DNA from: Escherichia coli
GTDB lineage: Bacteria > Pseudomonadota > Gammaproteobacteria > Enterobacterales > Enterobacteriaceae
Length of the DNA: 64,000 bases
Assembly (NCBI RefSeq): GCF_002854065.1
Contig: NZ_CP024147.1
Reading direction: 5' to 3' (one strand)
Made by a program: the position numbers. This document shows, piece by piece, positions 10,001 to 19,000 of the stretch. Each line of letters opens with the position of its first letter. Within the stretch, counting starts at the first letter, position 1.

Positions 10001-13000
10001 TATAAGTGCGCTCGATGCCGCGATGCAGATATAGCCGTCCGCGTAAATTAGCTGATGCTGTCCAGGTACCATCTTTGTGTTTGACCAGCATTCCTGGCAT
10101 GACCGCACCGCGATTAACGGTCTGCGTTCCGTAATGTTGATGAACCATAAAAACTCCTGCCCGTAAGCTGGGCTGCTGAACATATAAAGACTTCTGGGTA
10201 ATGACTCCAACTTATTGATAGTGTTTTATGTTCAGATAATGCCCGATGACTTTGTCATGCAGCTCCACCGATTTTGAGAACGACAGCGACTTCCGTCCCA
10301 GCCGTGCCAGGTGCTGCCTCAGATTCAGGTTATGCCGCTCAATTCGCTGCGTATATCGCTTGCTGATTACGTGCAGCTTTCCCTTCAGGCGGGATTCATA
10401 CAGCGGCCAGCCATCCGTCATCCATATCACCACGTCAAAGGGTGACAGCAGGCTCATAAGACGCCCCAGCGTCGCCATAGTGCGTTCACCGAATACGTGC
10501 GCAACAACCGTCTTCCGGAGCCTGTCATACGCGTAAAACAGCCAGCGCTGGCGCGATTTAGCCCCGACGTATCCCCACTGTTCGTCCATTTCCGCGCAGA
10601 CGATGACGTCACTGCCCGGCTGTATGCGCGAGGTTACCGACTGCGGCCTGAGTTTTTTAAATGGCGGAAAATCGTGTTGAGGCCAACGCCCATAATGCGG
10701 GCGGTTGCCCGGCATCCAACGCCATTCATGGCCATATCAATGATTTTCTGGTGCGTACCGGGTTGAGAAGCGGTGTAAGTGAACTGCAGTTGCCATGTTT
10801 TACGGCAGTGAGAGCAGAGATAGCGCTGATGTCCGGCAGTGCTTTTGCCGTTACGCACCACCCCGTCAGTAGCTGAACAGGAGGGACAGCTGATAGAAAC
10901 AGAAGCCACTGGAGCACCTCAAAAACACCATCATACACTAAATCAGTAAGTTGGCAGCATCACCTCTGGGTTGAGCGTATTTTAATCAGTAGTATCTTTT
11001 ACAAAATAAAGAGTATTCAATAATGAAAATTTTAATGATGATCGTGGCAGTTTCAGTATTGGCTGGCTGCACAAGTGACACCCGCTCGATGTGGCATAGC
11101 CGTTATGCATTCAAGACTGTCGGTCAGGTCTCTGCAATGTGTGATGATGGCGATCGTGACGCTTGCTATGCAGCTCGCGATATGGGGGCAATGCAGGTTG
11201 GCCTTAATCAAGCAAATCAGACCATTCAACAGCAGCAAGCTCAGCAGGCAGCTATCGATGCGGCTAACAGACCGATTACAACTAATTGTAATCCCACGAT
11301 AAATGGCGGAATGAGTTGTACCACCTACTAAACTGGTGCGAGAGTTAGTAGCGCCATGAACATTGTTAAGTCGAATGTCTTTATGAAACATTCTAGTACT
11401 TTAAAGCTGCCCCACTTACTCGCCTGACAAACGCACAGCAGGTGGTTTATTGGGTTTGAAAATATCTAAAAATAAGAGGGGGTGAAGTAATGGATGATTT
11501 TGAATCTTACGTGAAGTATTGGGAAGGAAAAAAAATTGAAGATCATGAGCGTCAACTAGATGATCTTGTACGGAGAGAGACTGAGATTTCGCAAGGAGAA
11601 AGCGGGCATGGAAGATTAAGTTTTATCGCACAGCAAATCAATTTTCACCGTAACAAACTGGAAAATTTACGCTTCAGTGGTGATTTGTACTAATTTGATT
11701 TTCCATAATCAACTCGCCATAATCATGTCATCGGAGCCTGAACAACTCCGGTGACTTCTGCGCTAAACGGGGACGTTTATGCGCACATACAATCTAAATT
11801 CTCTTCTCCCTTCACAGATGCAGAAATGCACCTGCGATTTTTTGCATCCAGCGTTTGACCTCTGCGGAGGTGAAGCGTGAACCTCCCACAAGACGGCATC
11901 AAATTACATCGCGGTAACTTCACCGCTATCGGTCAGCAGATCCAGCCTTATCTGGAGGACGGCAAATGCTTTCGCATGGTGCTTAAACCGTGGCGCGAAA
12001 GACGCAGTCTTTCCCAGAATGCACTCAGCCACATGTGGTACAGCGAAATCAGTGAGTACCTCATCAGCAGGGGGGAATCGTTCGCTACTGCAGCATGGGT
12101 AAAAGATGCTCTCAAACACACATACCTCGGTTATGAAACCAAGGACCTGGTTGATGTCGTAACCGGCGAAGTCACTACGATCCAGTCGTTACGCCATACC
12201 TCCGATCTTGATACCGGAGAGATGTATGTCTTCCTGTGTAAGGTTGAAGCCTGGGCGATGAATATTGGCTGCCGCCTGACTATTCCGCAGAGCTGCGAGT
12301 TCCAGCTGCTGCGCGACAAGCAGGAGGCGTAATGACTACACCGCTTATTCGGGTCATGAACGGACACATCTACAGAGTACCAAATCGTCGTAAGCGTAAG
12401 CCTGAGCTGAAGCCATCCGAAATACCAACACTGCTAGGGTATACCGCCAGCCTGGTTGATAAAAAATGGTTGCGACTGGCAGCAAGGAGGAATCATGGCT
12501 GATTTGAGAAAAGCAGCGCGTGGTCGGGAATGCCAGGTAAGAATCCCTGGCGTATGTAATGGCAATTCTGAGACGTCTGTACTGGCACATATCCGGCTGG
12601 CTGGATTGTGCGGTACCGGTATCAAACCGCCAGACCTGATTGCCACCATTGCATGTTCTGCCTGTCACGACGAAATCGACCGCCGCACACATTTTGTCGA
12701 TGCTGAGTATGCAAAAGAATGCGCGCTGGAAGATATGGCGAGAACACAGGTTATCTGGCTGAAAGAGGGGGTTATTAAGGCGTGAATACCTACAGCATCA
12801 CATTACCCTGGCCTCCGAGCAATAATCGCTATTACCGCCATAATCGCGGGCGCACGCACATCAGCGCAGAGGGGCAGGCATACCGCGATAACGTCGCCCG
12901 AATCATTAAAAACGCAATGCTGGATATCGGCCTGGCTATTCCTGTGAAAATCCGCATTGAGTGTCACATGCCGGATCGCCGTCGCCGTGACCTGGATAAT

Positions 13001-16000: not shown

Positions 16001-19000
16001 AGCCATCCGTCATCCATATCACCACGTCAAAGGGTGACAGCAGGCTCATAAGACGCCCCAGCGTCGCCATAGTGCGTTCACCGAATACGTGCGCAACAAC
16101 CGTCTTCCGGAGCCTGTCATACGCGTAAAACAGCCAGCGCTGGCGCGATTTAGCCCCGACGTATCCCCACTGTTCGTCCATTTCCGCGCAGACGATGACG
16201 TCACTGCCCGGCTGTATGCGCGAGGTTACCGACTGCGGCCTGAGTTTTTTAAATGGCGGAAAATCGTGTTGAGGCCAACGCCCATAATGCGGGCGGTTGC
16301 CCGGCATCCAACGCCATTCATGGCCATATCAATGATTTTCTGGTGCGTACCGGGTTGAGAAGCGGTGTAAGTGAACTGCAGTTGCCATGTTTTACGGCAG
16401 TGAGAGCAGAGATAGCGCTGATGTCCGGCAGTGCTTTTGCCGTTACGCACCACCCCGTCAGTAGCTGAACAGGAGGGACAGCTGATAGAAACAGAAGCCA
16501 CTGGAGCACCTCAAAAACACCATCATACACTAAATCAGTAAGTTGGCAGCATCACCCAGATTGGTTTAATAATTTGTCTTTGTGAGTTAAATACATAATT
16601 TTATACTTGTGATGCAATGAGATTTTCCTTATTGTTGAACTGGCGAATATTGATTTTCCACCTATACTTACCTGGTGTAACCCCAATGATATCAGGTGGA
16701 TAATATGCCATACATATGTTCTATCATTTTGGTGTTGAACTCGTTTGATGTCCGAATTGGTAAAGAAGATATTTTGTTTAAAAAAGGAAGTGCTGTTCTC
16801 ATTGATTACAATTTGAAAGATTTTTTTTCATCAAATATAGATCATGTAATGATCGTAGATGTTGAAGAGAAAACAGTTAATGATTTCTTTAAAAGCAACA
16901 CACTCTCACCTTTTTCTGTAAGAAGGTTTTATCCGGCATACTTGATGGTGGAATGTGAAGATTTTTCATTGTTAAAGAACTTGATTGCATGCTTGAATTG
17001 TGATGGCAGAACTGTGGATTTTGTTAGAAATCAAATATCACTTGCATGTCTTGCTATCTTATCTTCAGAGAAAATAGTGCAAAGTTTTTTATTTGGATGT
17101 CTTAATAGTTTAGGAAGTAAAGTTAAGGCTATTATTCACACGGATATATCTGCAGCATGGAGACTTTGTGATATATCTTCAAGACTGTATCTGAGTGAAA
17201 GTCTGTTAAAAAGAAAATTAAAGCACGAAGGCTTATCATTTAGTAAATTAATTCTTGAAGAGCGAATGGTGATGGCGGAAAGGTTATTAAGCTACAATTT
17301 ATATTCTGTTGGAAAAGTTGCTGAGATATGCGGTTATGAAAACACGTCATATTTTGTAAGTGTTTTCAGAAGATATTTTGGTGTTCCTCCCCATCAATAT
17401 TCATCAAGATTTTTTTTAGAAAAAGACATGATGTAACGTGATGCGTTTTAATGATTTTGTAATTTTCGTATTTGATAATTGTATGCTGCTTTCAGCTACG
17501 CCAGAATAATCGCTGGCGTTTTTCTTTTTGAATAGATGTTCAAGCCTTACGCTAATGTAACTTCTATACCTTTCCTCTTCGTTCCGAACCGTGTACACCA
17601 TCCGTTATTTGCGGAGGTGAGGCGGTGATGCTGCCAACTTACTGATTTAGTGTATGATGGTGTTTTTGAGGTGCTCCAGTGGCTTCTGTTTCTATCAGCT
17701 GTCCCTCCTGTTCAGCTACTGACGGGGTGGTGCGTAACGGCAAAAGCACTGCCGGACATCAGCGCTATCTCTGCTCTCACTGCCGTAAAACATGGCAACT
17801 GCAGTTCACTTACACCGCTTCTCAACCCGGTACGCACCAGAAAATCATTGATATGGCCATGAATGGCGTTGGATGCCGGGCAACCGCCCGCATTATGGGC
17901 GTTGGCCTCAACACGATTTTCCGCCATTTAAAAAACTCAGGCCGCAGTCGGTAACCTCGCGCATACAGCCGGGCAGTGACGTCATCGTCTGCGCGGAAAT
18001 GGACGAACAGTGGGGATACGTCGGGGCTAAATCGCGCCAGCGCTGGCTGTTTTACGCGTATGACAGGCTCCGGAAGACGGTTGTTGCGCACGTATTCGGT
18101 GAACGCACTATGGCGACGCTGGGGCGTCTTATGAGCCTGCTGTCACCCTTTGACGTGGTGATATGGATGACGGATGGCTGGCCGCTGTATGAATCCCGCC
18201 TGAAGGGAAAGCTGCACGTAATCAGCAAGCGATATACGCAGCGAATTGAGCGGCATAACCTGAATCTGAGGCAGCACCTGGCACGGCTGGGACGGAAGTC
18301 GCTGTCGTTCTCAAAATCGGTGGAGCTGCATGACAAAGTCATCGGGCATTATCTGAACATAAAACACTATCAATAAGTTGGAGTCATTACCTGGGTGTTC
18401 ATCCCAATAAGTGATGAAAAATTAAACAGGTGTAAGTACGTCATCTGTCCGGTAAGCCCCCTAAGAGCCAAATTAAGTGAAGTTAAACGAAGACTGCCAG
18501 TTGTTACAGGAACGATGGCCTCTTTGCCAGGGCACTGCATTCAGTCATCTGTGCGCGTTACTCTAACTGGCACTCGAACGTCGGCGATGGGGTTACCGGT
18601 GGATCAGGCCGTTCCTGTGGCGTAAACGTTTTTATGTCAGTACCAACAGATTTACCACATTTATCATCTTAACAGTTTGAGTGTAAATGCAGGCTGCGTC
18701 GCAAAGGGAGGAAACTGAGTGGCGTGTTCAGTCTAAAAGAGGGTTGATGCCAGCATACAGGGCGAAGCTGGTCAACAAGTCAACATTAATATAATGGAAT
18801 ATTCGGAGAGAAACGTCAGGCAGTTGACCTTAAATGAACAGGAAGATACATCCCCAGGAAAATTAATGCTGGTGTAATAAATACACCAACATTAATCCGG
18901 TCTGATTATTAATCAGACAAATATCGTTAATTCGTCGAATTTTAAATCAACGTTTTTTCTTACGACCCTGAACGGCCTTAAAACGTGGATTAGATTTACA

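Follow-up and report, generated by a model that had tools for sequence, protein, structure and literature searches.

Three IS1 copies in a probable lambdoid prophage remnant at thrW of Escherichia coli: one simple insertion and two deletion scars

The window considered here is a stretch of 64,000 nucleotides of Escherichia coli DNA (NCBI RefSeq assembly GCF_002854065.1, contig NZ_CP024147.1). It contains a tRNA gene that serves as a prophage attachment site, several blocks of phage genes, three copies of IS1 and, beyond the last of these, chromosomal DNA. In window coordinates, the features are as follows.

4913-4988, plus strand: thrW, tRNA-Thr(CGU), the prophage attachment site, attL side (ARAGORN)
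5003-10196, minus strand: left arm of the lambdoid remnant, with int, an HTH/xis-like gene, DUF4222, TraR/DksA, N6-adenine methyltransferase, exo, bet, gam and kil (open reading frames, with names from the 100416 annotation)
10197-10964, minus strand: IS1 copy A, lacking a target duplication and standing in for a 5,604-bp immunity/replication region
10965-11626, plus strand: 662 bp adjoining the right (IRL) end of copy A, with one whole and one partial hypothetical phage gene, kept here and deleted in CUWW06
11627-15788, plus strand: nin/Q region and cargo, with ybcN, ninE, ybcO, rusA, ylcG, the Q antiterminator, a Blc-type lipocalin (minus strand) and a YbgA-like protein, collinear with ECONIH1 and phage IdasGreatGrand
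15789-16556, minus strand: IS1 copy B, a simple insertion with the 9-bp target duplication CAGATTGGT at 15780-15788 and 16557-16565
16696-17436, plus strand: AraC/XylS-family regulator (YdeO/GadX-like), phage cargo between Q and holin (NCBIfam and synteny)
17624-18391, plus strand: IS1 copy C, opposite in orientation to A and B, lacking a target duplication and forming the prophage-chromosome joint
18392-19350, no strand assigned: chromosomal DNA from about 295 bp upstream of ykgL (frameshifted), then ykgO and ykgM (K-12 and GF60 alignment, CUWW06 annotation)

From 4970-4972 onward, within the 3′ end of the tRNA, the window is homologous to CUWW06 and 100416, both of which carry the prophage, and no second att core is left within the window. 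The left arm is the same as that of 100416 (window 4970-10196 corresponds to L004 9170-14396, with 100% identity over 5,227 bp). The retained parts keep a lambda-like order (int-xis-exo-bet-gam-kil, then nin-rusA-Q), and the modules that are missing (immunity, O, P, lysis and morphogenesis) are present in 100416, ECONIH1 and phage IdasGreatGrand. The regulator, whose hits to the NCBIfam models for YdeO (7e-37) and GadX (3e-24) fall short of the curated cut-offs, has the same position in ECONIH1 and in the isolated phage IdasGreatGrand. We consider it very likely that this region is what is left of a lambdoid prophage at thrW, a mosaic of DLP12/HK-type phages that was cut down by recently active IS1. 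With comparably high confidence, about 11 kb of phage DNA remains, in which recombination, nin/Q and cargo genes have been kept. The remnant would very likely be incapable of induction, replication, lysis or excision.

The remnant resembles the defective lambdoid prophages of K-12 (DLP12, Rac, Qin and, at thrW itself, CP4-6): they too are truncated and lie at tRNA sites, and they too have lost the immunity/replication and late regions while retaining int, recombination genes, nin/rusA and Q. DLP12 shares the gene names ybcN, ninE, ybcO, rusA and ylcG with the nin-Q segment, and CP4-6 shares the thrW site but is a different mosaic. What sets the present case apart from the K-12 prophages is that intact IS1 copies still sit at the deletion endpoints and that a sister strain keeps the pre-deletion state.

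The three IS1 copies are each 768 bp long and 100% identical: A and B agree directly, and C agrees with them after reverse complementation. All three have both termini, with imperfect terminal inverted repeats that begin GGTGATGCTGCCAACTTACTGAT and GGTAATGACTCCAACTTATTGAT, and in all three insA, insB and the A6C frameshift motif (TTAAAAAAC at position 305) are intact. InsA (91 aa) is identical to K-12 InsA2 and InsB (167 aa) has one difference; at the nucleotide level the element differs from K-12 IS1B/IS1C at 1 position and from IS1A at 8, and PGAP annotates the identical copies of CUWW06 as intact IS1B-family transposase genes with a programmed frameshift. In length, terminal inverted repeats, insA/insB with A6C and the 9-bp duplication at B, the element is thus no different from known K-12 IS1B/IS1C, and its insertion sites alone are lineage-specific.

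The flanks of the copies are another matter. IS1 generates target duplications of 8-9 bp and can transpose replicatively inside the chromosome (PMC12428005). Copy B has a perfect 9-bp direct repeat, CAGATTGGT, on both sides (chance about 4e-6), and where the empty site is preserved, in ECONIH1 (L002 33142-33150) and in phage IdasGreatGrand (L008 18688-18696), these 9 bp are present as a single copy, so the repeat at B is a real target duplication. Copy B is a plain transposition event, and its target was the AT-rich spacer that precedes the phage-borne AraC-type regulator. The flanks of A are AGACTTCTG and TCTGGGTTG and those of C are AGGTGAGGC and TGGGTGTTC; at neither copy was a duplication of 8-9 bp found, with boundaries shifted by up to 3 bp and lengths of 5-14 bp compared. 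The sole coincidence at A is a 4-bp TCTG on both sides, and a 7-bp “TCTGGGT” was rejected as a duplication because it consists of 4 flank bases and 3 IS1 bases. When flank pairs of different copies were compared in both orientations, no cross-match was found and therefore no inversion signature; inversion between A and C or between B and C is separately ruled out by a gene order that is collinear with 100416 and the intact phages. A first-pass annotation of this DNA had described three identical 768-bp copies at these coordinates, with C inverted and a 9-bp duplication at B alone: exact sequence comparison, the flanks and the empty sites bear this out, and shifting the IS boundaries, after which a match would have refuted it by its own account, produced no matching duplication at A or C. 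The duplication-bearing copy B is what simple IS1 insertion leaves, and the lack of a duplication at A and C reflects later deletion.

At copy A, the deleted DNA can be read from a sister strain. Strain 100416 carries the same prophage at thrW, and there the two flanks of A map 5,604 bp apart: window 10965-14514 corresponds to L004 20001-23550 (99.94% identity), and copy A takes the place of L004 14397-20000, exact at both termini, with L004 14396 and 20001 as its flanks. The lost interval, intact in 100416, holds two repressor-adjacent genes, a cI-like repressor, cro, ydaT, O, P and ren. The deletion endpoint thus lies exactly at an IS terminus, the IS is kept and there is no target duplication. 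The second sister strain, CUWW06, has the same junction on the left of A, but its copy of IS1 directly abuts window position 11627, so that between the two strains the left junction is fixed and the right one differs by 662 bp. A search of 5,426 complete E. coli genomes recovered the left junction from CUWW06 alone and the right junction from none. The 662-bp segment is absent from the whole CUWW06 genome and the 5.6-kb segment is not found elsewhere in it, an exclusion of relocated DNA that covers these two A-side segments only, and in CUWW06 only. At an identity of at least 99%, the 5.6-kb segment has no copy outside 100416.

Copy C joins phage to chromosome. Its left flank stops 1 bp before the holin start of the collinear intact phages (ECONIH1 and IdasGreatGrand), and its right flank falls between ecpR(matA) and ykgL, in intergenic DNA that resumes about 295 bp ahead of ykgL and aligns to K-12 from position 311,820 onward and to GF60 with ecpRABCD immediately upstream. 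Set against ECONIH1, the phage, K-12 and GF60, this junction too has its endpoint at an IS terminus, with the IS kept and no target duplication. Both C junctions are shared with CUWW06 only (among the 5,426 complete genomes), and a single state is known among the derivatives. What is missing comprises the lysis and structural genes, attR, and chromosomal DNA as far as ykgL. With the ancestral attR-ykgL DNA taken from other strains (K-12 and GF60), the chromosomal loss would include pao, yagU, ykgJ and the ecp pilus operon, and as a rough estimate the deletion may have removed about 29 kb of phage DNA and about 15 kb of chromosome. The size stays an estimate because the same prophage with an intact right arm was found at thrW in no strain: the integrase at thrW is common to 105 genomes, those inspected diverge after about window position 6490, and E. 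coli HS has a P22-like phage at the site.

The first-pass annotation had read A as marking a deletion of the immunity/replication region and C as marking loss of the lysis/structural region and of chromosomal DNA up to ykgL. Both readings have held: the 5,604-bp interval of 100416 contains the genes in question, the comparison with strains carrying a thrW prophage that the annotation had proposed supports deletion at A through both 100416 and CUWW06, and the flanks of C map to intact phages on one side and to K-12 and GF60 on the other.

How might such junctions form? For A, the nested one-ended deletions point, with good support from the aligned junctions, to transposase-mediated adjacent deletion, and this mechanism is favoured because the sister strains show exactly that nesting. 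IS1 most likely inserted first 48 bp upstream of kil, which would give a precursor of the form “IS1 IRL end + AGACTTCTG + CGCGTATTCAGG”, with IS1 at the kil site and the immunity region intact. The IRL end would then have attacked a nearby site on the same molecule (intramolecular replicative transposition, which amounts to adjacent deletion), so that IS1 and its left junction stayed in place while 5,604 bp were lost; in CUWW06, the same IRL end would have taken away 662 bp more. Copy C may have come about in either of two ways: by another adjacent deletion, or by two IS1 copies of like orientation recombining with each other.

IS1-associated adjacent deletions were reportedly described by Reif and Saedler in 1975 and by Turlan and Chandler in 1995. 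The losses at thrW are like the known examples in several ways: each begins precisely at the end of an IS that stays in place, no target duplication is present, they span hundreds of base pairs to tens of kilobases, and a related strain shows further extension at one end. They differ in that natural isolates are compared here rather than events observed in real time, and in that the mechanism at C may be either route. More generally, either adjacent deletion or recombination of two IS copies can leave an element without its target duplication, and adjacent deletions grow step by step over time, as seen for IS150 in the long-term evolution experiment (PMC11708052). In clinical E. coli, deletions of 11-66 kb lie immediately beside IS1, and nfsB deletions have been reported (PMC10569738).

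The most serious alternative is that both scars stem from RecA-dependent homologous recombination between directly repeated, normally inserted IS1 pairs, leaving one hybrid IS1 whose left and right flanks stem from different copies. The end product would be the same, an intact IS1 without a target duplication, and recombination of this kind is a common cause of missing duplications (PMC11708052). The lineage is also rich in identical IS1 (three within 8 kb here, and CUWW06 and 100416 carry others), IS1 has demonstrably inserted into the ecpR-ykgL spacer in GF60, and serial extra insertions at A, each followed by homologous recombination, would yield the products observed there. Against this, a left junction shared by the window and CUWW06 with different right junctions would take two extra insertions and two recombinations at A, more steps than one insertion followed by one or two one-ended deletions, and IS1 was found at the partner sites in none of the 5,426 complete genomes. 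We therefore regard recombination as the source of both scars as possible but rather unlikely, and adjacent deletion as the better account of A. The order of events is something we infer, since no precursor (IS1 with its target duplication at one endpoint and the neighbouring DNA present) was found among the same 5,426 genomes; the exact 36- and 37-mers spanning the A and C junctions were likewise absent from species-representative genome contigs and from metagenome contigs.

The first-pass annotation had also noted that B and C together with the regulator between them resemble a composite transposon. Such a unit could have brought in, or moved, the AraC-type regulator. As far as shape goes the resemblance stands: two intact inverted IS1 copies around 1,067 bp with one gene have the form of IS1 composite transposons such as Tn9, in which two IS1 copies likewise flank a short cargo. 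The copies of Tn9 are in direct orientation, however, and the evidence for movement as a unit goes the other way. First, B has its own perfect target duplication across its inner and outer flanks, and the unit as a whole is bordered by unlike sequences (CAGATTGGT and TGGGTGTTC), so that no duplication is shared at the level of the unit. Second, the enclosed 1,067 bp and the neighbouring DNA on both sides are collinear with the IS1-free ECONIH1 and IdasGreatGrand, where the regulator lies in its native phage context between YbgA and holin. Third, the flank on the left of C occurs at 607 places in E. coli genomes, all of them chromosomal, and PLSDB matches to the enclosed DNA are confined to records of 280 kb-4.9 Mb that are predicted to be non-mobilizable, none of them a true plasmid. 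A composite transposon is accordingly very improbable. Slighter still is the chance that the assembly created the identical copies or odd flanks by collapsing or misjoining repeats, a concern that had been raised at the outset and is a natural one, identical 768-bp repeats being a classic cause of misassembly: the independently assembled complete genome of CUWW06 has the same three-IS1 layout, in which the A-left, B and C junctions all recur and 18 kb align at 99.96% identity, which speaks against collapse, and the flanks all match genuine sequence of other strains cleanly, as far as the IS1 termini themselves.

Prophage decay driven by IS1 is already known biology, and the present case is real but ordinary. 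It is a clean and fully mapped example of insertion sequences turning a complete prophage into a harmless remnant, with neighbouring chromosomal genes (probably including the E. coli common pilus operon) lost as well, and both the pre-deletion and the further-deleted states survive in sister strains. Its use lies in the annotation of the source genome and in teaching; knowledge of IS1 and of prophage decay is unchanged. A broader reading, which we put forward tentatively and think rather improbable, is that the window strain, CUWW06 and 100416 together represent a natural series in which one thrW prophage and its neighbourhood were eroded independently and repeatedly by IS-bounded deletions, the ecpR-ykgL spacer being a recurrent IS1 target. 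If this were true and the losses were selected (for example, because they rid the cell of the ECP pilus or of lethal phage genes), the series would be an example from nature of directional, IS-driven domestication of a prophage, together with the loss of a surface structure.

The three strains are 99.96-100% identical in the DNA they share. The events seen across them are a 5.6-kb deletion and a 0.66-kb extension at one IS1 end, and a loss at a second IS1 that is estimated at roughly 40 kb or more. GF60 has an independent IS1A insertion in the ecpR-ykgL spacer, 7 bp away and in the same orientation, and 100416 carries a separate deletion that is bounded by IS5.

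The IS1 finding is real, and its interpretation in the first-pass annotation is essentially correct: the cryptic lambdoid prophage of this window carries one simple IS1 insertion and two IS1 deletion scars. Neither the element nor the process is new; this is textbook biology. What is worth keeping is the exact event map of the three copies, the survival for copy A of both a pre-deletion state (in strain 100416) and a further-deleted state (in strain CUWW06), and the ecp pilus operon that was probably lost. Searching the entire window for repeats gave exactly three long ones, and a script confirmed that each is 768 bp, that A and B are identical and that C is the exact reverse complement, just as the annotation had described. 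Its ends are those of IS1 (GGTGATGCTGCC... and GGTAATGACTCC...), insA (91 aa) and insB (167 aa) are intact, and the A6C frameshift motif is present; K-12 IS1B and IS1C are 1 nt away and IS1A 8 nt. The order of features is as follows.

Start of window: proB, proA
4913-4988: tRNA-Thr(CGU), thrW, the only tRNA gene
5003-6163, minus strand: integrase, after thrW
After the integrase: lambdoid left arm (HTH/xis-like, DUF4222, TraR/DksA, adenine methyltransferase, exo, bet, gam, kil)
10197-10964: IS1 copy A
After A: two small hypothetical genes, then ybcN, ninE, ybcO, rusA, ylcG, Q antiterminator
After Q, before B: Blc-type lipocalin (opposite strand), YbgA-like gene
15789-16556: IS1 copy B
Between B and C: AraC/XylS-family regulator, YdeO/GadX-like, under NCBIfam cut-offs
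17624-18391: IS1 copy C, inverted
After C: chromosomal ykgL, ykgO, ykgM, ykgR

Only the middle copy has a target-site duplication, a perfect 9-bp repeat (CAGATTGGT) on both sides. Copy A has the left flank AGACTTCTG and the right flank TCTGGGTTG, and copy C lies between AGGTGAGGC and TGGGTGTTC; shifting the boundaries by up to 3 bp and trying lengths of 5-14 bp gave no duplication at either. Cross-comparison of all flanks of the three copies in both orientations likewise gave no inversion-type flank exchange, and the observation is therefore correct as described, also after boundary correction. The 4 bp TCTG occur on either side of copy A (10193-10196 and 10965-10968); this is below the IS1 duplication length, is probably a chance match (1 in 256) and is missing from the A-right flank of CUWW06. 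IS1 makes duplications of 8-9 bp, and its transposition within the chromosome was found to be replicative (PMC12428005); where duplications are missing, adjacent deletion or recombination of one IS copy with another is the usual cause (PMC11708052). CUWW06 is the sole complete genome spanning the entire region, and it has the same three IS1 sites and orientations; this independent assembly answers the concern that identical copies had been collapsed or misplaced in assembly.

Copy C joins prophage to chromosome. Its left flank (16557-17623) is collinear with the intact prophage of strain ECONIH1 and with the isolated phage IdasGreatGrand, and stops 1 bp short of the start codon of the holin gene essD (ECONIH1 annotation). 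On the right, the alignment to K-12 begins at coordinate 311,820, in the matA/ecpR-ykgL spacer about 295 bp before ykgL. In strain GF60, whose downstream genes are those of the window, ecpR, ecpA, ecpB, ecpC and ecpD lie directly upstream of the C breakpoint. These alignments bear out the proposal that C is a deletion endpoint reaching the ykgL region. Given the flank positions and the lack of a second thrW att core anywhere in the window, the holin, lysis and morphogenesis genes up to attR are absent, as is the chromosome from attR to the spacer. A phage of the same type has about 29 kb from holin to attachment site, and K-12 has 14.6 kb between the end of its thrW prophage and the breakpoint (yagP, paoABCD, yagU, ykgJ, ecpEDCBA and matA), so the loss is estimated at roughly 40 kb or more and would probably include the ecp pilus operon. 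No strain was found with this prophage and an intact right arm; 105 genomes have the same integrase at thrW, and those inspected are other mosaics. Both C junctions are shared with CUWW06 only (5,426 complete E. coli genomes). Either an adjacent deletion or recombination between two IS1 copies could have left copy C, and the two cannot be told apart. A two-copy precursor is plausible, as IS1 has hit this spacer more than once: an independent IS1A lies there in GF60 (NZ_CP172185, locus positions 5257-6024), 7 bp from the C breakpoint and in the same orientation. The GF60 element has an apparent 18-bp duplication (ATGGTTATGGGTGTTCAT, the left side with one additional G), unusually long for IS1.

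At copy A the mechanism is better constrained. The 736 bp to its right occur in about 20 of the 5,426 complete genomes, among them 100416, where the same prophage adjoins thrW. Window 4970-10196 matches positions 9170-14396 of the 100416 locus at 100% identity and window 10965-14514 matches 20001-23550 at 99.94%; 14397-20000 is kept in 100416 and replaced by IS1 in the window, with breakpoints exactly at both IS1 termini. The interval encodes a 311-aa hypothetical protein, DUF6932, an S24-peptidase (cI-type) repressor, a cro-like regulator, ydaT, O, P and ren. By this comparison with a thrW prophage that retains the segment, copy A marks the loss of 5,604 bp of immunity and replication genes, as had been proposed. 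Within it, the 311-aa and DUF6932 genes form a two-gene unit beside the repressor (14832-16234), in the position of rexAB in lambda; the pair may be a phage-exclusion module. The A-left junction is shared with CUWW06 only, and the window's A-right junction occurs in no complete genome (5,426 examined for each). In CUWW06, IS1 A directly adjoins window position 11627, and the intervening 662 bp (10965-11626) are absent from its whole genome. One fixed junction with nested endpoints opposite is the outcome expected of transposase-driven adjacent deletion, in which the IS remains in place, one of its ends attacks a site close by and the sequence between them is lost; CUWW06 would then show a deletion still growing from one end of IS1 A. 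A series of fresh IS1 insertions, with copy A recombining homologously with each, could give the same junctions, but would need more steps, and no partner copies were seen. Reif and Saedler (1975) and Turlan and Chandler (1995) are the classical papers on IS1 deletions. Adjacent deletions are often small initially and extend later (PMC11708052), and in clinical E. coli deletions of 11-66 kb arise directly beside IS1 (PMC10569738).

Copy B is a simple insertion. ECONIH1 has an intact lambdoid prophage at argU that is collinear through the B site: window 11694-15788 aligns to positions 29056-33150 of its locus and 16557-17623 to 33142-34207, and from this overlap CAGATTGGT is single there. IdasGreatGrand has the same empty site (97-99% identity). 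The suggested likeness of B and C to a composite transposon holds in shape (an inverted IS1 pair around 1,067 bp and one gene) but not otherwise, and a mobile unit is rejected because every mobility test fails: copy B is flanked by a duplication of its own, the outer flanks are unlike, and the order of the DNA inside the pair and around it is that of IS1-free phages, which have lipocalin, YbgA and AraC genes between Q and holin. The regulator end at the C-left flank has 607 matches in E. coli genomes, every one of them chromosomal, and the four PLSDB matches, whose records run from 280 kb to 4.9 Mb and are predicted to be non-mobilizable, are probably not transposon-bearing plasmids. Two separate IS1 events produced this layout as a by-product. 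The cargo cassette itself (13900-17436, Blc-type lipocalin, YbgA-like and YdeO/GadX-like AraC genes) is 99% identical in IdasGreatGrand and about 89% in a set of lambda-like phages; its Q-holin interval is the position of stx in Shiga-toxin phages. AraC regulators of O157:H7 prophages act on host acid-resistance genes, and by analogy the window's regulator may do so too.

The thrW prophage and its neighbourhood are being eroded independently by different ISs in close relatives. Strain 100416 is of the same chromosomal lineage (window 31866-46796 matches its 25805-40736 at 99.96%) and keeps the immunity region, yet an IS5 joins window-equivalent 14514 to 31583 with everything between gone, an independent IS5-bounded deletion; an IS1 also lies in its ykgA (window equivalent 31866-31874) with a normal 9-bp duplication, CACATACCG. 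Within 23551-25804 of its locus, the IS5 links the prophage lipocalin region straight to ykgA. In both CUWW06 (1-8170) and 100416 (1-9170), thrW has a further element with an integrase, placed in tandem on the upstream side of the lambdoid remnant (window 4970-4988); it is P4-like in the former and different, with a capsid gene, in the latter. CUWW06 also has an IS2 within the integrase gene (5-bp overlap, window 5834-5838); the window has neither the tandem element nor the IS2. Beyond copy C, ykgL (18687-18912) has no full-length ORF and the adhesin gene fdeC is broken into two overlapping frames (27229-29037 and 29004-31481); both are annotated as frameshifted in CUWW06. The ykgR to fdeC/eaeH interval holds a 6.3-kb block missing in K-12 (20381-26677: an NADH-dependent flavin oxidoreductase, an alpha/beta hydrolase, two LysR regulators and two aldo/keto reductases), which is found in CUWW06 and, over the extent of locus compared, in GF60.
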